From the NCBI GenBank assembly GCA_031385045.1, contig JANNBC010000025.1:32001-96000 (forward strand): DNA of 64,000 bases. Direction: 5' to 3'. Source of the DNA: a bacterium (GTDB lineage Bacteria > Bdellovibrionota_C > UBA2361 > CALJRW01). The notes beneath the pieces are model-generated. The model was not told where the DNA came from, searched no databases, and was given only the letters and a program-made list of their open reading frames with translations. Positions 1,775 to 8,898 of the stretch are shown in pieces (within the stretch, counting starts at the first letter, position 1; every line of letters begins with the position of its first letter). Position numbers and translations under genes: made by a program.

Positions 1775-2740
1775 TTATTCTATTGTTTGATTTAAAGCAT
1801 ACGCGGAAAAGGCTGAACCGTAAAATGTAGACTGATCAAATAAAATCTTTTTGCTATTTGTCGCAGTGTCATGGATGGATGTCTTCCATCTCCAGATATA
1901 ATCTTTCTCCATGTGTTTAGCGGAAAGTTCTATCACTAATTTTTGTGAGACGTTAACGTCGATGCCATTTTCAAATGGAAAGAAGACACTGCCGTATACT
2001 TGGTTTTTAGCATCTGGCCCACAGGAATAGGAAACTGTTGAAGTTAGTTCACAGTCAAACCAAGCAAAAAACCCAAATAATGTTTCGTTTGAGCCAGTGA
2101 AGCTTACAGTTGAACGATGAGAATAGTCTTGGATCTTTGTATAATCGAGCTGACACCAGAGGCTTGGTTTTGCTGAAAGCATTTCCTGCTTGATTGGTAA
2201 GGGGTAGAAGGTATTGCAGAGATATTTTTCGTAGGCCTTGGTCGTAAATGGAAATTTTTGGTTTAAAAACGGTCTAACTTTCTGATTGAAAATATTTTTA
2301 TCGCGACAAGGAGCCAAGTAGATCTTATCAATACTTGGTAGAAGTTTACCTGTTGGTTTTAAGAATTTCTCTTGTGCTAATTTCATGATCTTTAAATTAT
2401 CTTCGTAGAAGGGAAGTTTTCCTCTTAAGTCGGCAATAATCAGATCAACTTGCGAAAAATTTAAATTCTCAATTTTTTCTTCATAGAATTCCACTCGGTC
2501 CTCAAATTTATTTTCTTTCACGAGCTCTCGAGCGATTTGAATCGCAGGGTTAGGTTCGACAGCGATTACTTTTTTAGCTCCGAGAGAACATGCCAGGAGC
2601 GTAAAGCCTCCAGTGCCTGCGCCTAAGTCTAGGACAATAGTTTCTGGTGTAATAATTTCCGCTAATGCTTTAGCATAAGCCGGAACTCTTACTGGGTCAG
2701 CTAACATTTGAGAGAAGTGGCGAGGACTATAAGTATTCAT
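1775..2740 (-). CDS. Class I SAM-dependent methyltransferase, PRMT (protein arginine methyltransferase)-like fold
   Basis: QMLADPVRVPAY, VLDLGAGTG, VIAVE, VDLIIADLRG..FYE, LKPTGKLLP and WFD align with the PRMT N-terminal helix, motifs I/post-I/II/III and the beta-barrel. Confidence 0.8.
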   Translation of the reverse strand: MNTYSPRHFSQMLADPVRVPAYAKALAEIITPETIVLDLGAGTGGFTLLACSLGAKKVIAVEPNPAIQIARELVKENKFEDRVEFYEEKIENLNFSQVDLIIADLRGKLPFYEDNLKIMKLAQEKFLKPTGKLLPSIDKIYLAPCRDKNIFNQKVRPFLNQKFPFTTKAYEKYLCNTFYPLPIKQEMLSAKPSLWCQLDYTKIQDYSHRSTVSFTGSNETLFGFFAWFDCELTSTVSYSCGPDAKNQVYGSVFFPFENGIDVNVSQKLVIELSAKHMEKDYIWRWKTSIHDTATNSKKILFDQSTFYGSAFSAYALNQTIE

Positions 2741-2845
2741 TAGATAGATTATTACTGGTGATCTTTTGAAGGATCAACTGCTAGTCTAGGTTATTAATCA
2801 GATAATGAGAACTAAATTTAGAGTAAGAGAGGATTGGAACAAATA

Positions 2846-2986
2846 CTATGTTTGCATACCAAAAAAATCAGCTGACATTGAGCCACCAAATTTAGTTAAC
2901 TCTTTAAGCGAGCCATATTTAATTAGTTTAGGCTTTTGATAAGTTTTTTTTTCTTTTTTAGTATCTGGGGTTTTCTTATCTTCCAT
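2846..2986 (-). CDS. RiPP precursor peptide with lasso-type leader, 46 aa: MEDKKTPDTKKEKKTYQKPKLIKYGSLKELTK-FGGSMSADFFGMQT (not in ORF track)
   Basis: ATG at 2986, TAG at 2846-2848; YxxPxLxxxGxxxxxT leader motif; directly downstream of the PqqD/RRE gene. Confidence 0.88.
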   Translation of the reverse strand: MEDKKTPDTKKEKKTYQKPKLIKYGSLKELTKFGGSMSADFFGMQT

Positions 2987-2993
2987 AGGTTAC

Positions 2994-2999
2994 ATTATA
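2994..2999 (-). promoter_or_regulatory. Putative -10 box (TATAAT) 7 nt upstream of the precursor ATG, leaderless-type promoter
   Basis: Minus strand reads TATAAT-GTAACCT-ATG with no Shine-Dalgarno. Confidence 0.45.
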
Positions 3000-3026
3000 A
3001 TTTAAAATTTAAGTTATGTGAAGCAA

Positions 3027-3311
3027 TTAAATGAGAGTAATAACCTCGGCTTCCAGTAGGCCTTGAATCAGGTTAATTAAGTCTTGCTGTAAATCTGCTT
3101 CATTAACCTCGTAATCTTCCGCTAGTAATTTAGATGCTTCTAGGATAGAGGAGGACTCTACTAGCCTCATGTAAAAAGCATAGCCGGTGGAATCTAGGCC
3201 ATAGTAGTTGTTATTCTTCAAATTTAGCAACACGCAGGTATCATCAAGTTGTTTAACTAGGACATCGTCTTGAGCTACAACTTGACTTTGTAGATTGATA
3301 TTCACAGCCAT
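3027..3311 (-). CDS. PqqD-family RiPP recognition element (lasso B1-like)
   Basis: 94 aa, VLVKQLDDTCVLLNLKNNNYYGLDSTG...LAEDYEV...LQQDL...L..AEVI, the typical stand-alone PqqD/RRE pattern. Confidence 0.88.
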   Translation of the reverse strand: MAVNINLQSQVVAQDDVLVKQLDDTCVLLNLKNNNYYGLDSTGYAFYMRLVESSSILEASKLLAEDYEVNEADLQQDLINLIQGLLEAEVITLI

Positions 3312-3316
3312 TTAAA

Positions 3317-4102
3317 TTACTCTAAAGTGTATTTCTCTAGAGAAATATCAATTCCACCTTCGGAGATGTACTTGGCAATGATATTAGCATTAAAGCAACC
3401 AGGGAATTCCGGACAAAGTACAACTGTGAAACTAGAATCTTCTTTAATATCTTCTTTTTTAATTGTTTTGGTAAAGATAATTTCCTCAGGATTTCCTTTT
3501 TTGAAAACCTTTAAAAGTAAGCTTTGATAATCTGTTTCTTCAGTAGAAAAACTACAAAACAATTGACCACTTTGCGGGGCAAATAAAACCTGATCTGATC
3601 CGGCTTGGTACGCTGGTATATTCTTGCCTTTAAGTTCGCAGTTACCAGAAAATAGACCTGTCACAATATTTGTTTCTTCGTAAGTTGGAGGTAGCACAAG
3701 ATCAACTGGTAATGGCTCAGTTGGTAAATTAGCCTCAGAGGCAAATGTTAATGTCGCATTTAAGCAGTCCTGAATCCCATCACGAATTAATTGCTTGGTG
3801 GCTATTTGGGATTCCATTTTCCGCTTAAGTTTATTACTAGACTCTTTTTTTAGGTCAGCTTTTAGAAGTTTGATTTCTTTTACTACCTGTTTTCGAAGTT
3901 TTAGGGCTTGGCGGTCAGTAAACTCCCGGACATTTTTTTCCAGTCCATCCTGTGTAAAAGTTTTAATCAAGACAGAATTGCTATTTTCTTTGCAAAAATA
4001 AGACTTAGTTTTACTAATTATTGCAATTCTTTGATCTTCAGCCTGGGCACTTAGACTTAACAAAAGGACTAATGGTAATATGTATTTTAGTTTTATGTTC
4101 AC
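3317..4102 (-). CDS. Hypothetical secreted protein
   Basis: Signal peptide ending SAQA, basic coiled-coil segment, several Cys; ends 5 nt before the RRE gene. Confidence 0.7.
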   Translation of the reverse strand: MNIKLKYILPLVLLLSLSAQAEDQRIAIISKTKSYFCKENSNSVLIKTFTQDGLEKNVREFTDRQALKLRKQVVKEIKLLKADLKKESSNKLKRKMESQIATKQLIRDGIQDCLNATLTFASEANLPTEPLPVDLVLPPTYEETNIVTGLFSGNCELKGKNIPAYQAGSDQVLFAPQSGQLFCSFSTEETDYQSLLLKVFKKGNPEEIIFTKTIKKEDIKEDSSFTVVLCPEFPGCFNANIIAKYISEGGIDISLEKYTLE

Positions 4103-4251: not shown

Positions 4252-7200
4252 ATGTCTCATAAGTCGTTTCTCGCTCTTTTTTTATTTTTCCTAGCTAATC
4301 TGCTGGAAGCTCAGGCTCCAGGGAACGTTACAGCTAACTTTCCGCTTTGGTTAAAGGCTAATGCTGGGACGTCTACCACAACAGATGGTGTGGGTGTTCA
4401 GACATGGACGGATCAGGCAACAGCATTGGGAGGAAGTAATAATGCTACTCAAGCTACAGCAGCCAATCGACCACTCTATAAAAGTCTTACTCCAATTAAT
4501 TTTAATCCTTACATTCGTTTTGATGGAGTTAGTGATCGCTTTCAGATTGCCTCCAATACTAGCATTAATAACGTAGCCAGTCTTACTAAGTCTGTATATT
4601 ATGCCTTTCGAACTGGTAGTAGCGTGATTTCTCCTGTCAGGCAGTTAATTTATAAAGAACGAAATCATCAGTCGGGTTTTAACTTATACCTATATAACGG
4701 GAATCTTTACTGTTCAGCTTTTAAAACAAATACAGCACCAACATGGCCATGGAAGGGGAATAGTGTTGCCGCCACGCCTAACACTACTTATGTTGTAAGT
4801 TTTATTATGAATGGGACTGCAGCTAATGCTGGAACGATTGCTTGCTATGTTAATAGTTCTCAGTTTGCGAATCTTACAGGTGTTGGTCAAATTCAAGCTG
4901 TAAATGCCATTAGTAATATAGGTTCTAGAGAATTACGAACGAACTATGAAGGTGTTCAGGTTGCAAATGCTAATGCTGATTTTTCCGCCGTCGATTTTAG
5001 CGAAATTGCTTATTATAATGCTGCTCATACAACGGCAGAGCGCAATAAAATTGAGTCCTATCTGGGGGTAAAGTATGGAGTAACTCTTAATCAAACTGTT
5101 GCTAATAATTACACCAACAGTGCTGGAACTGTAATTTTTAATGCTACAGGTACGCATAATTCTTATCGCAATGATATTGCCGGTATTATGATTGATACAA
5201 ATTCTGGCCTTAGTCAATTACAGTCGAAATCTGTCAATACTGATGCAATCGTAACAATGTCCACAGCTTCTGCCATGGCGAATACTGAATCACTGCTCTG
5301 GGGGAATGACAACGACGATAATGGTGTGATTCAGGAAATCTATACGGGGATTCCTGCTGGCGTTGCCGCTAGATTAGATCGAGTTTGGAGAGCCGATCAA
5401 ACTGGTGATGTTGGGACTGTTACGATCACTTTTAACTTAAATGGCATTGCAGTGTCTGGAACCTCTGCCAGTCAATTTCGTTTGCTGGTTGATTCGGTTA
5501 ATAGTGATTTTACATCAGGTGCTACCCAAGTAAATGCTGCCACATATTCTGGTGGAATTGTAACTTTTAATAATGTTGATTTTACTGGGGATGATTATTT
5601 TACATTAGTAACTTATGTCACACCTAGTCCTCCTACCGTTACGTTAACTACTAATTCTAGTACTATTTTGGAAAATGGTGGGGTGGCAACTCTGACAGCA
5701 ACCCTAAGTAATATTTGGACATCCGCCGTAACTGTTAATTTAAGTTATAGTGGAACAGCTACAAACGTGACTGATTATTCTAGATCAGGAGCATCTATTA
5801 CAATCCCTATTAATTCCTTAAGTGGTTCAGTTACGCTTACGGCAATTGATGATGCTTTTAGTGAAGGAGCGGAAACTGTCATTACCGATATTAGTTCGGT
5901 TTCTGGAGGTGGTACGGAGAGCGGGGTGCAACAAGTTACAGTCACTATTACTGATGATGAGCCTGTTAATAATGCTTGCAGTGGTCAGGAGCGTATATTC
6001 ACTACGGAATTAGCAAGTGGTGATGTTAATACTTATAGTATTGCTGGGGTTTATCAAGCAACCTCAACCTCAGCCTATACTCAAAACTATGAAATGATAA
6101 TCGATCCAGATAATAATTATCGTTATCTAGCATCCTATGGCAACCTTCGAATTACTAGAGCTAACTTTGATGGAACAGGGGAGATAACTCTTTTTAATAC
6201 ATCTCTGTATTCAGCAAATCCTCCTTTTCAAGTTACAATTAATCCAAACCAAGGCAAAATTTATTGGACAGATTGGGCAGCAAATACAGCTAACATTTTT
6301 TGTGCCAATCTTGATGGTACGGGAACACCAGTTGCCATCGCTACGGGATTAAATTACCCGACTGGTATGCAGATCGATAAAAACACAGGGCGTTTATATG
6401 TTTACTTTGGTCTTAATGCGCCTATTACCTTAACTACAGCTCTGACTAACGGAAGTTGTGGTGCAATTACTTTAGCAACACTTTTAAATACGGGACTAGA
6501 CTTAGCTTATAATTTAACAATCGATCCTCCAGGAAATCGACTTTTCTTTGTAGATTACAACTCACAAACGATCAAAAAGGTTAATACAGATGGTACTTCT
6601 TTAGTTACTCTCCGAACTTTAACTGCTCCTGGGGACCAGATGCGGGATATCGTTTATAATAAGAATACTAATAACCTTTACTGGGTTCACACTAATGGTG
6701 TGATTCAGCGAGCCTTGGCCGATGGAACTGGTGGGATTACAACTGTTGTTGCCAGTGGTCAGCCTGATAGTCGTTCGATTGATATTTGTGTTGATGATGC
6801 TGCTCCACGTCTAAGTCGTTTTTATAGTACTTCAGCTAACAGTCGCTATTGTCCGATTGTTCCAATTAATAGCATTGATATTCGTGCGGTTTATGATGAA
6901 TCGGTTGTTGCAGGTTCGACGATCACGGTGCAATTAAACAATGGGGCGAATGTCGTTTTGAGTTCAATCACAGGGAATGAAATATCTGGAACTTATACTG
7001 TCGGTGCTACTGGTAGTGGTCAAACAATTGCTGATTTATCTGTTGCCAGTATTGTTAGTGAGTCTGTTTTAGATGTTAATAATAATACGCGAGTTAATTC
7101 TACAGTTCCAGCTAGTCCAAATAACTTAGGAGATTCTTCCAATATTGTTGTTGATACTTCTGCTCCTGTGATTACAGAAGTAACGCCCGTAGCTTCTCCA

Positions 7201-8898
7201 ACAATAAATCGTAATCCAACATATGTTATTAACTCTAGTGAGGTGGCAACAATTTCCTTTGGTGGTTCATGTAATAGTGTTACCACTAGTTTAGTAGCGG
7301 GGAATAACACAATTACTTTGGATTCTAATGGCGCGGGAGGACAGTTAGCTGATGGGGTTTACAGTAACTGTACGATAACAGTGACCGATGCTTCTGCTTG
7401 TAATACTACGAATTATAATATTTCTGCTTTTACAGTGGCAGCGACAGTTCCAACTGTCACTCTTAGTCGAAATTTTGCAACGATTAATGAAGCTGCTGGA
7501 GTAGCAACTTTTACAGCCACCTTGATTAATACCTATGCCTTAGCAACGACTGTTAATCTTAGTTTTAGTGGAACAGCAGGCGGTAGTGATTATTCTGCTT
7601 CTAATACTCAGATTGTGATTCCAGCACTTAGTACTACTGGGACGATTACAGTTACAGCAACTGAGGATCTTTTGGTTGAAAGTACTGAAACAGTCATCGT
7701 TGATATCTCAACAGTTACAAATGGAACTGAAAGTGGTGTGCAACAGGCTTCAACTTCAATCTTAGATAATGATTCTCCATCTTCTGTAACACTTTCAACA
7801 AACCTCAGTAGTATCTCAGAAGCTGGCGGAGTAGCAATTTTAACCGCGACACTAAATACTCTTAGTGCATTAAATGTAACAGCAAATTTAACCTACACGG
7901 GAACGGCAGCTAATGGCACTGATTATACAGCCGCGACTAGTATCGTAATTACGGCAGGTAGTCTTTCCGCTAGTATTAATTTAACCGGACTAGAAGATGC
8001 TACTTTTGAAGTCACAGAAACAGCTATCGTTGATATTAGTAGTGTTACTAATGGTACAGAAGCTGGTGTTCAGCAAGTAACAGTGAGTATTACAGAGGAT
8101 GCTGTTTGTAATCAGCCTGCTTGGCCGGCTCCTCATGGATTAACCAAATATATTGCCATGAGTTTTGAGCGAACTTTTGCTTCCACTAATGGATATGTGC
8201 CGCCAAGTGGTGATGCTTTTGATACTTACCTTGCTCGAAACCAAACTCAAAAAGATGCTAAGCGTGATAGTGCCTATGCCTTTTTCTTAAGCGAGTATGG
8301 ACTTGATTTTGCAAATGATGGAATTTCTTGCCCAGGGGGAATTTGTATTATGAATGGGCCTGATGCTCAAGTCATGCTTCGTTACATAAGTTTTGATAGT
8401 AATTTTCAAGCTAAGATTAATGCTGCAAGTAGTTACAAAGTTGATACTTCTGGTGGTGATTTAAGAGCTGGTATTTATCAGGTACTTACTTTTGATACTG
8501 AAAATATGTCTGGCAATGATGGTACAATTTTAAATGGTGCTTGGGGTGGAGGCCCCGGTAAACTAGTTCCTCGTGGTACAGTTTTAGAGTACGGTGAATA
8601 TCAACTCCAAATTTTATATCCTTGCACAGATGCCCCTAATCCAAACTTTACTAGAACCGATACCTTTTTAGTTGAATTTCAAAGTCAGAAACCAAGTTTA
8701 GCTGATTTTAATGAGGATAACGGAGCTTTCTTTCTTGATATTCCACAAATTTTTGAATATGAAATTACAAATGTAACTCCTAATTTTCCTACAGGATTTG
8801 TGAATGGTGAGATAATTGGTCGGACTGAGATTAGGCAAGATCCTGCTAGTCCTTATAACGTTACCGCTATTTCTAGTGTTACTTTGACAGTTCCTTAG
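4252..8898 (+). CDS. Large secreted/surface protein: LamG-like domain, three Calx-beta-like repeats, YWTD-like beta-propeller, Ig-like segments, unknown C-terminal domain
   Basis: Signal peptide; LWLKA...WTDQ and KIESYLGVKYG (LamG-associated); repeated TVTL...I.E.GGVAT.TATL...V.L..SGTA...DY...E..ETVI.DI; IYWTD/LFFVD/LYWVH propeller blades. Confidence 0.85.
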   Translation: MSHKSFLALFLFFLANLLEAQAPGNVTANFPLWLKANAGTSTTTDGVGVQTWTDQATALGGSNNATQATAANRPLYKSLTPINFNPYIRFDGVSDRFQIASNTSINNVASLTKSVYYAFRTGSSVISPVRQLIYKERNHQSGFNLYLYNGNLYCSAFKTNTAPTWPWKGNSVAATPNTTYVVSFIMNGTAANAGTIACYVNSSQFANLTGVGQIQAVNAISNIGSRELRTNYEGVQVANANADFSAVDFSEIAYYNAAHTTAERNKIESYLGVKYGVTLNQTVANNYTNSAGTVIFNATGTHNSYRNDIAGIMIDTNSGLSQLQSKSVNTDAIVTMSTASAMANTESLLWGNDNDDNGVIQEIYTGIPAGVAARLDRVWRADQTGDVGTVTITFNLNGIAVSGTSASQFRLLVDSVNSDFTSGATQVNAATYSGGIVTFNNVDFTGDDYFTLVTYVTPSPPTVTLTTNSSTILENGGVATLTATLSNIWTSAVTVNLSYSGTATNVTDYSRSGASITIPINSLSGSVTLTAIDDAFSEGAETVITDISSVSGGGTESGVQQVTVTITDDEPVNNACSGQERIFTTELASGDVNTYSIAGVYQATSTSAYTQNYEMIIDPDNNYRYLASYGNLRITRANFDGTGEITLFNTSLYSANPPFQVTINPNQGKIYWTDWAANTANIFCANLDGTGTPVAIATGLNYPTGMQIDKNTGRLYVYFGLNAPITLTTALTNGSCGAITLATLLNTGLDLAYNLTIDPPGNRLFFVDYNSQTIKKVNTDGTSLVTLRTLTAPGDQMRDIVYNKNTNNLYWVHTNGVIQRALADGTGGITTVVASGQPDSRSIDICVDDAAPRLSRFYSTSANSRYCPIVPINSIDIRAVYDESVVAGSTITVQLNNGANVVLSSITGNEISGTYTVGATGSGQTIADLSVASIVSESVLDVNNNTRVNSTVPASPNNLGDSSNIVVDTSAPVITEVTPVASPTINRNPTYVINSSEVATISFGGSCNSVTTSLVAGNNTITLDSNGAGGQLADGVYSNCTITVTDASACNTTNYNISAFTVAATVPTVTLSRNFATINEAAGVATFTATLINTYALATTVNLSFSGTAGGSDYSASNTQIVIPALSTTGTITVTATEDLLVESTETVIVDISTVTNGTESGVQQASTSILDNDSPSSVTLSTNLSSISEAGGVAILTATLNTLSALNVTANLTYTGTAANGTDYTAATSIVITAGSLSASINLTGLEDATFEVTETAIVDISSVTNGTEAGVQQVTVSITEDAVCNQPAWPAPHGLTKYIAMSFERTFASTNGYVPPSGDAFDTYLARNQTQKDAKRDSAYAFFLSEYGLDFANDGISCPGGICIMNGPDAQVMLRYISFDSNFQAKINAASSYKVDTSGGDLRAGIYQVLTFDTENMSGNDGTILNGAWGGGPGKLVPRGTVLEYGEYQLQILYPCTDAPNPNFTRTDTFLVEFQSQKPSLADFNEDNGAFFLDIPQIFEYEITNVTPNFPTGFVNGEIIGRTEIRQDPASPYNVTAISSVTLTVP

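Follow-up and report, generated by a model that had tools for sequence, protein, structure and literature searches.

A probable lasso peptide pathway divided between two loci, with a PRMT-fold methyltransferase beside the precursor gene

The window, a stretch of 64,000 nucleotides from a bacterial genome, carries three genes of what is very probably a lasso peptide pathway of the paeninodin/pseudomycoidin type, split over two loci. The other maturation genes were found on contig C48 of the same genome (G000; 2.83 Mb, 61 contigs, 95% complete). In the best reading of the gene set, the product would be a pseudomycoidin-like lasso peptide carrying an uncharacterised methylation. A stable split of a lasso pathway and a clade of cores free of Lys and Arg are what the window newly provides.

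The genes for an RRE, a lasso precursor and a methyltransferase lie in the same orientation and are followed by uvrA, as an earlier note on this DNA had described (Table 1). The lasso-type YxxP leader recognised in that note was confirmed by the lasso leader model and by a genome-wide leader PSSM scan in six frames, in which the window peptide scored 36.0 and the next-best site 13.6. The window peptide is the only lasso-type precursor of the genome and its leader is not a chance occurrence. With the lasso_cyano model NF033528, the precursor scored 31.9 bits, below the cut-off of 33. The core is predicted to close a Phe1-Asp8 macrolactam, and Phe9 and Phe10 may possibly act as steric locks. The tail beyond Asp8 has six residues only, a point against the lasso reading. 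Calculated neutral monoisotopic masses of the core are 1481.596 in linear form and 1463.585 when cyclised; for the cyclised core they rise to 1477.601 with an added CH2, 1543.551 with HPO3 and 1557.567 with both. The position of a sigma-70-like promoter just upstream of the precursor suggests that this gene has its own, probably leaderless, transcript; the same layout, with a spacing of 6 nt to the precursor ATG, was found in a second genome of the genus (G001). The RRE component of a lasso pathway occurs twice in the genome, as two PF05402 matches above the cut-off, and the window copy is 35–36% identical to the one on C48. With family-built HMMs, no cyclase, B2 protease, kinase or nucleotidyltransferase was detected in the 64-kb window at E ≤ 0.01, which agrees with the earlier note for cyclase and B2. 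One contig assembled from a public run covers the whole stretch with zero differences, and this run may be where the DNA came from. Three other public runs held short pieces only.

Table 1. Features of the window (plain coordinates) and of contig C48.
Feature	Location	Strand	Evidence or remark
RRE (lasso B1, PqqD family), 94 aa	3027..3311	-	PF05402 45.1 bits vs cut-off 23.4
Sigma-70-like promoter, 11/12 consensus	2994..3022	-	ends 7 nt before precursor ATG
Lasso precursor A, 46 aa	2846..2986	-	lasso leader NF033521 25.5 bits vs cut-off 19
Leader motif YxxPxLxxYGxLxELT-K, residues 16-32, Thr at -2	2891..2941	-	
Predicted 14-residue core FGGSMSADFFGMQT	2849..2890	-	without Lys, Arg, His, Asn
PRMT-fold SAM methyltransferase, 321 aa	1775..2740	-	sub-threshold PRMT_C and PRMT5_C matches
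NTP_transf_5 enzyme	C48:469-1494		98 bits; family-built HMM E 1e-21
HprK-like kinase	C48:3497-4378		family-built HMM E 1e-21
Asparagine-synthetase-like cyclase	C48:9776-11338		over PF00733 cut-off; SGGLDS and GFGGD kept; family-built HMM E 4e-21
RRE2	C48:11340-11666		second PF05402 match, over cut-off
B2 protease, transglutaminase-like	C48:11863-12288		PF13471 36.3/26, NF033537 41.5/33; family-built HMM E 5e-15

The earlier note had proposed a whole-genome search for Asn_synthase and Transglut_core3 genes, and this search located both on C48, together with the second RRE, the kinase and the NTP_transf_5 enzyme. For the kinase, cyclase, nucleotidyltransferase and B2 alike, the best genome match of the family-built HMM lies on that contig. 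The cyclase, RRE2 and B2 genes adjoin one another, and the HprK-like kinase and NTP_transf_5 enzyme are features of the paeninodin/pseudomycoidin subtype. The surroundings contain GT4 glycosyltransferases, an O-antigen-ligase-like gene, a polyprenyl sugar transferase and a HepA/MsbA-like ABC transporter. The C48 maturation genes thus sit inside a surface-polysaccharide locus. No second precursor was found near them among small ORFs or by the PSSM scan. Since only a single lasso-type leader exists genome-wide, the C48 enzymes have no other evident substrate. The headline of the earlier note, a minimal RiPP class that would be new and lack both cyclase and peptidase, falls by the test set in that note itself, the finding of B2 and cyclase elsewhere in the genome. 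Its other reading, a pathway with its genes in two places, is the one that survived.

The split is shared by G001, in which RRE, precursor, methyltransferase and uvrA follow one another on contig C9, and B2-RRE-cyclase, kinase and nucleotidyltransferase lie on C63. By contig arithmetic, G000 has at least about 43 kb between the trio and the cyclase, and G001 at least about 100 kb. The usual, not obligatory, arrangement of A, B and C genes in one cluster is therefore absent from both genomes, where they occupy two contigs. Because the matching gene order of G001 stands on long contigs, an assembly artefact is unlikely. Between the two genomes, the precursor had a pN/pS of 0.049/0.51 and the methyltransferase one of 0.23/0.82; the values of the cyclase and of B2 were 0.24/0.73 and 0.26/0.72, and that of the kinase was 0.32/0.77. 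With synonymous sites almost saturated, all genes are still intact, including the SGGLDS and GFGGD motifs of the cyclase, the Cys and His motifs of B2 and the LHA, P-loop and DD motifs of the kinase. These comparisons indicate that the split is old and maintained, and that both halves are under purifying selection. The relic option, which the earlier note had also considered, is excluded by the lack of stop codons and the clear purifying selection between G000 and G001.

Among 124 genomes of the class, six match the family profile of the methyltransferase and four are true members (G000, G001, G093 and G097). The matches in G007 and G011 were rejected as members, being a separate PRMT-like protein in which Glu...Glu is retained along with a loop of THW or THW-like type. 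In G093, the genes cyclase-ABC-RRE-A-methyltransferase-kinase are contiguous and B2 is on another contig; its core, FGGSGSADFFGEMMGM, is of the same type as that of the window. In G097, the whole gene set stands in a glycan locus. The window methyltransferase falls together with its G093 and G097 counterparts (SH-aLRT 97 in a quick tree).

The weakest component of the lasso assignment is the C48 cyclase. Its best NCBIfam match is the lasso cyclase NF033535 with 66.9 bits against a cut-off of 525, and it shares 23% identity with the G093 cyclase, its best BLAST match outside the genus among the fetched proteins. In a FastTree phylogeny, from which 22 near-duplicate loci were omitted, its branch has a length of 2.6 changes per site, and the support for its grouping is only 84%. 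Such strong divergence makes lasso formation less certain than it is for canonical clusters. The same genes might instead make a non-lasso product, for which the asparagine-synthetase-like enzyme would catalyse a different reaction, such as C-terminal amidation, and the methyltransferase would methylate the nitrogen so introduced, in the manner of FzmA/FzmH in fosfazinomycin; the peptide may then be a surface or signalling molecule, either linear or linked to a glycan. The long branch and the surface-glycan neighbourhood of C48 favour this explanation, as does a precedent in the available part of PMC13622209, where an asparagine-synthetase-like enzyme works with an RRE, a YxxP peptide, a methyltransferase and a nucleotidyltransferase towards a product that is not a lasso. 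The B2 protease, however, is kept and intact. Asp or Glu at core position 7–9, as in lasso peptides, is found as Asp8 in 13/13 aligned clade precursors including G093 (F1, G2, G3, S4, F9, F10 and G11 are invariant as well) and as an acid in 60/72 family cores from the best 80 of 316 loci. Of 40 sampled family cyclases, 18 match the N-terminal pattern, and 17 of these 18 have Ser replacing the glutaminase Cys, which likewise speaks against a non-lasso product. Owing to the fosfazinomycin and LPP precedents for YxxP peptides and RREs outside lasso chemistry, we leave a small probability for it. According to the accessible sections of PMC13060819, about 3,500 asparagine-synthetase-like enzymes are lasso-related and about 300 are linked to other RiPPs.

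The lasso reading is carried further by the neighbourhoods of the methyltransferase family. The sample consisted of the best 80 of 316 loci confirmed among 600 pattern matches listed (GTDB); neighbours were clustered, their representatives annotated, and the HMMs used for counting were built from the same 80 loci. The neighbours in these loci, which are rich in related Acidobacteriota (51/99 tree rows) and not independent, were kinase (72), cyclase (71), RRE (65), precursor (65), nucleotidyltransferase (61), ABC transporter (47) and B2 (39). When only the 47 well-flanked loci of the best 80 of 316 are taken, the counts are kinase 46, cyclase 46, RRE 45, precursor 42, nucleotidyltransferase 41 and B2 32. 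The linkage of methyltransferase homologues to RREs and YxxP precursors, the survey of which the earlier note had suggested, is thus present. In 59/72 loci of this best 80 of 316, the kinase directly adjoins the methyltransferase. B2 is frequently detached: in all five of the B2-less genomes tested, B2 genes occur elsewhere, although four of the eight fetched are part of other lasso clusters. In the same best 80 of 316, five loci (L022, L066, L063, L079 and L082) have no lasso genes in the fetched DNA. A metagenome scan with the single methyltransferase protein gave 204 pattern matches and no relative. A second metagenome scan gave 16 loci, all 30–36% identical, with a lasso-type neighbour in 14/16. 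Members of the family occur in Acidobacteriota, Cyanobacteriota, Chloroflexota, Gemmatimonadota and others. As judged from gene content, the methyltransferase marks a lasso subfamily, and the linkage holds across several phyla.

A cyclase-free RiPP, in which the window RRE hands the peptide directly to the methyltransferase and the C48 enzymes have another purpose, is very improbable on these counts. None of the 47 well-flanked loci (of the best 80 of 316) has a precursor without cyclase and B2, and B2 and cyclase are present in all four family-bearing genomes among the 124 of the class. A precursor of the same type lies inside the cyclase-containing cluster of G093, and the C48 enzymes are without a second precursor. 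On its side are the trio, which stays together and away from the rest in two genomes, and two Anaerolineae loci of the best 80 of 316, in which the methyltransferase stands beside a radical SAM/SPASM protein with no cyclase. Another point is the pair of RREs in the genome, and such pairs can work for different pathways, as the available text of PMC13381572 describes for the LPPs.

The methyltransferase had been assigned a PRMT fold in the earlier note, and modelling agrees. Its best PDB sequence matches are PRMTs (E 3e-23), its AF2 model has a pLDDT of 94, and Foldseek gave TM values of 0.83–0.85 against PRMT1/PRMT8. For the homologue P0009, the comparison with PRMT2 gave Z 34.0 and rmsd 2.4 over 305 aligned residues. 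The predicted structure is the Rossmann plus beta-barrel PRMT fold. The ESM Atlas gave automatic "L11 methyltransferase" names only. The window enzyme is a short form without the helical C-terminal extension of the family, in which 51/80 enzymes (best 80 of 316 loci) have at least 360 residues. The idea that the window RRE substitutes for the missing extension is unsupported. For the extension as a fused RRE, hhalign gave a probability of 32% across 26 columns, against at most 3% for controls, its AF2 model shows four helices and no sheet (the fold search spanned residues 1–305 only), and short methyltransferases of Pyrinomonadaceae likewise have just one RRE nearby.

With the eukaryotic type I PRMTs (PRMT1, PRMT8 and CARM1), the enzyme shares the two-domain fold (TM about 0.8–0.85) and the SAM-binding M-x-x-D-x-x-R and GxGxG motifs. 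The pocket differs, and consists of D104-L-R106-G, N115 and V248-Y249. Neither the double-E loop nor the THW loop of the PRMTs is kept, and the precursor offers no substrate Arg. The PRMT segment S-E-W-M-G...E-S-M corresponds to S-D-L-R-G-x-L-P in the family. In the double-E loop, Asp takes the place of the first Glu (position 104, 79/80 of the best 80 of 316 loci), and the second Glu is unconserved (position 113, Glu in only 12/80; Glu in the window enzyme, Gln in the G001 orthologue). Position 106 is Arg in 71/80 and His in 7/80, and position 115 is His in 60/80 and Asn, as in the window enzyme, in 10/80 of the same best 80 of 316. The THW loop is replaced by [IV]-Y-G, with I/V in 78/80 and Tyr249 in 79/80 of these loci. 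By its residues, the family is not one of arginine methyltransferases, the pocket having been rebuilt away from the PRMT type.

The cores give some guidance to the methyl acceptor. The clade of the window peptide comprises 12 precursors with a mean core identity of 0.87, of which only 3/12 are tied to a methyltransferase gene (two directly, P0053 indirectly). Lys and Arg are missing from 11/12 of these cores; eleven have Gln as the penultimate residue, and the remaining one has Arg. The last residue is T in 8, S in 2, A in 1 and G in 1, so that the conserved C-terminal Ser, the kinase site of paeninodin and pseudomycoidin, is not a feature of the clade. In the wider family (best 80 of 316 loci), 61/72 cores end in [KR][TS]x0-3, 69/72 have Lys or Arg in the tail and 22/72 contain Arg. 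Lysine is a natural guess for the acceptor from such K/R-rich tails, but the window clade breaks this pattern, and the absence of Lys and Arg from 11/12 clade cores argues against plain Arg/Lys methylation in the clade. Arginine methylation of the window peptide was rejected because Arg is absent from all of its 46 residues.

The side-chain amide nitrogen of the penultimate Gln13, at the Lys/Arg position of the wider family, is quite possibly the acceptor. A nitrogen acceptor is favoured by D104 in 79/80 enzymes (best 80 of 316), by the [KR][TS]x0-3 ends of 61/72 family cores and by the penultimate Gln or Arg in 12/12 clade cores. The conserved Asp at the end of strand 4 is reminiscent of the motifs of amino-methyltransferases like PrmC. 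RiPPs with methylated side-chain amides are known from PoyE, AerE and PbtM1 (PMC11285071, in the part available). Against a nitrogen side chain stands the G093 core, without Lys, Arg, Gln, Asn and His, in a genome whose methyltransferase pocket is standard. An anionic oxygen, of a phospho-Ser/Thr or of the C-terminal carboxylate, seems a rather unlikely acceptor; it fits every core, the Arg/His/Tyr pocket and the adjacency of the kinase, and is opposed by the conserved Asp and by Asn115 of the window clade. Another acceptor, such as a backbone nitrogen, Asp, Met or an added sugar, is doubtful to a similar degree. No side-chain acceptor is common to all cores. This, and three Chloroflexota loci of the best 80 of 316 with an Arg/Gly-rich SHOCT-domain protein and no lasso genes, would suit a methyltransferase that travels with lasso clusters and methylates a protein or glycan; given that it stayed with the precursor upon the cluster split and is linked to lasso genes across several phyla, such a target, even when counted together with the relic option, is the least probable explanation.

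We return to the split lasso pathway. The genes, the fold, the linkage and the selection were observed, and all of the chemistry is inferred from them. An RRE would bind the YxxP leader, as is established for lasso RREs generally. The kinase would phosphorylate a Ser/Thr of the linear precursor, in which Ser4 is invariant across the clade and the last residue varies (T/S/A/G). The methyltransferase would move a methyl group from SAM onto the peptide, as its linkage suggests. From the motifs, B2 is predicted to cleave behind the Thr(-2)-Lys(-1) pair, and Phe1-Asp8 to be closed by the cyclase. By analogy with PsmN, the NTP_transf_5 enzyme may decorate the phosphate with a sugar or nucleotide. 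As a tentative extension, we propose that the PRMT-fold family, retooled from arginine, adds a methyl group undescribed on lasso peptides, either as N5-methyl-glutamine (Lys/Arg elsewhere in the family) or as a methyl-phosphate cap, with precursor, RRE and methyltransferase acting in trans with the enzymes of the polysaccharide locus. Because the maturation enzymes are embedded in that locus, the near-invariant 14-mer may end up linked to a glycan or at the cell surface instead of acting as a secreted antibiotic.

If the enzyme methylates the peptide, it would add a third type to the lasso methyltransferases, and its widespread family would contain a PRMT-fold enzyme whose chemistry is not that of arginine. 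Cultured cyanobacteria are among the bearers of the family and make this testable; their clusters L020, L061, L062 and L078 are in one piece and have cores with Lys. The clade is a natural experiment, for the absence of Lys and Arg from 11/12 cores narrows the acceptor for the whole family. Mining of cluster windows can yield a false "new class" where a lasso pathway is stably split. The interest that remains is in an unstudied PRMT-like methylating enzyme paired with a core without arginine or lysine.

With pseudomycoidin (psm) and paeninodin (pade), the window system has in common A, B1, B2, C, the HprK-like kinase, an NTP_transf_5-type enzyme and an ABC transporter (PMC6993621 and PMC9266682, in their available parts). 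Lasso clusters of this kind are reported within capsular-polysaccharide loci in the accessible text of PMC13381572. Unlike psm and pade, the window system has an extra PRMT-fold methyltransferase, genes in two loci and two RREs per precursor, and its core starts with Phe and does not end in the conserved Ser. The methyltransferase resembles LasF/StspM and the PIMT-like TceM/LihM in being a SAM-dependent tailoring enzyme encoded with lasso genes, as far as the available descriptions go. Unlike them as described, it has the Rossmann plus beta-barrel PRMT architecture. In these descriptions, PMC9266682 among them, LasF/StspM form a C-terminal methyl ester and the PIMT-like LihM an aspartimide, and these enzymes are O-methyltransferase or PIMT homologues, which fits the earlier claim that the window enzyme is unlike the described lasso methyltransferases. 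In the literature, no characterised PRMT-fold lasso methyltransferase was found, and the family may appear in the supplements of papers; reviews of 2022, 2024 and June 2026, in the sections available, name only C-terminal methylation and aspartimide formation for lasso methyltransferases. SznE is a bacterial small-molecule arginine methyltransferase (PMC12637814, available part). A likeness to WbdD, by analogy only, lies in a kinase step followed by methylation, a glycan context and Arg/His/Tyr near the methyl group; its substrate, in the accessible part of PMC3482155, is O-antigen mannose, unlike that of the window system, and Asn in place of His at 115 of the window enzyme weakens the analogy. 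Fosfazinomycin (PMC13622209) and the LPPs (PMC13381572), as far as the available texts describe them, combine YxxP precursors and RREs outside lasso chemistry with kinases, nucleotidyltransferases and, for Fzm, an N-methyltransferase. No phosphonate or hydrazine genes were found in the neighbourhoods of the trio and of the C48 genes. The LPPs are described in the same available text of PMC13381572 with a signal peptidase and no cyclase, whereas both B2 and cyclase are present in the window system.

Because the promoter of the lasso precursor gene ends 7 nt upstream of the ATG in the window and 6 nt upstream in G001, a same-genus genome with the same split of lasso genes, a leaderless precursor mRNA is suggested by this predicted site. 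Of 1539 long ORFs across the genome, 115 have TAxxAT 5–8 nt upstream of their start codon, versus 77 at the control offset.

Just upstream of the RRE gene and co-oriented with it lies a 261-aa ORF, which gave no family match and shares 72% identity with its G001 version. The neighbouring 1548-aa protein appears adhesin-like from its sequence, and its G001 counterpart (1222 aa) is found at the same place.

Features and their locations (L-numbers, fetched loci; MTase, PRMT-fold methyltransferase)
Feature	Location	Strand	Remark
1548-aa protein	window 4252-8898	+	Calx-beta, LDL-receptor class B, LapA-like matches
261-aa ORF	window 3317-4102	-	signal-peptide-like start
-35/-10 promoter	window 2994-3022	-	near-consensus; upstream of lasso precursor ATG
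Counterpart promoter site	L012, upstream of 9337		
Lasso precursors	L130:3779-4156; L135:5054-5437		C-terminal Peptidase_S74 (endosialidase chaperone) fusion
MTase-family gene, then RRE-like ORF and radical SAM/SPASM enzyme	L022:5452-8372; L066:9965-12604		Anaerolineae
Arg/Gly-rich protein gene, MTase-family gene directly after	L063:9436-10933; L079:8928-10426; L082:2225-3707		Chloroflexota
Second, more distant PRMT-like gene	L048:7689; L076:3903		in two clusters
PRMT-like proteins with N-terminal extension	L126:6308-7525 (G007); L127:6150-7241 (G011)		bacterial

The same MTase family is present in the clusters of the S74-fused precursors. In five other clusters (L055, L068, L072, L092, and L095, from Pyrinomonadaceae and other Acidobacteriota), B2 was not in the fetched locus; all five genomes carry B2 genes elsewhere.

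The family also occurs at loci whose fetched DNA shows no lasso genes. No lasso cyclase was found within the fetched DNA of the two Anaerolineae loci, and their arrangement is a candidate RiPP system without a cyclase; at L022 there is also a peptide of 63 aa whose leader carries WxPPxI. The three Chloroflexota loci likewise have no lasso genes within the stretch fetched. Their Arg/Gly-rich protein, with a SHOCT domain in both loci scanned, is possibly a protein substrate of the adjoining MTase.

Regarding the second PRMT-like protein, its L048 copy keeps Glu...Glu, the double-E loop of PRMTs, and the local precursor core contains Arg at both loci. The PRMT-like proteins of G007 and G011, two genomes of the same class as the window, are surrounded by housekeeping genes. 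They retain Glu...Glu together with a THW or THW-like loop and could be true protein arginine methyltransferases.
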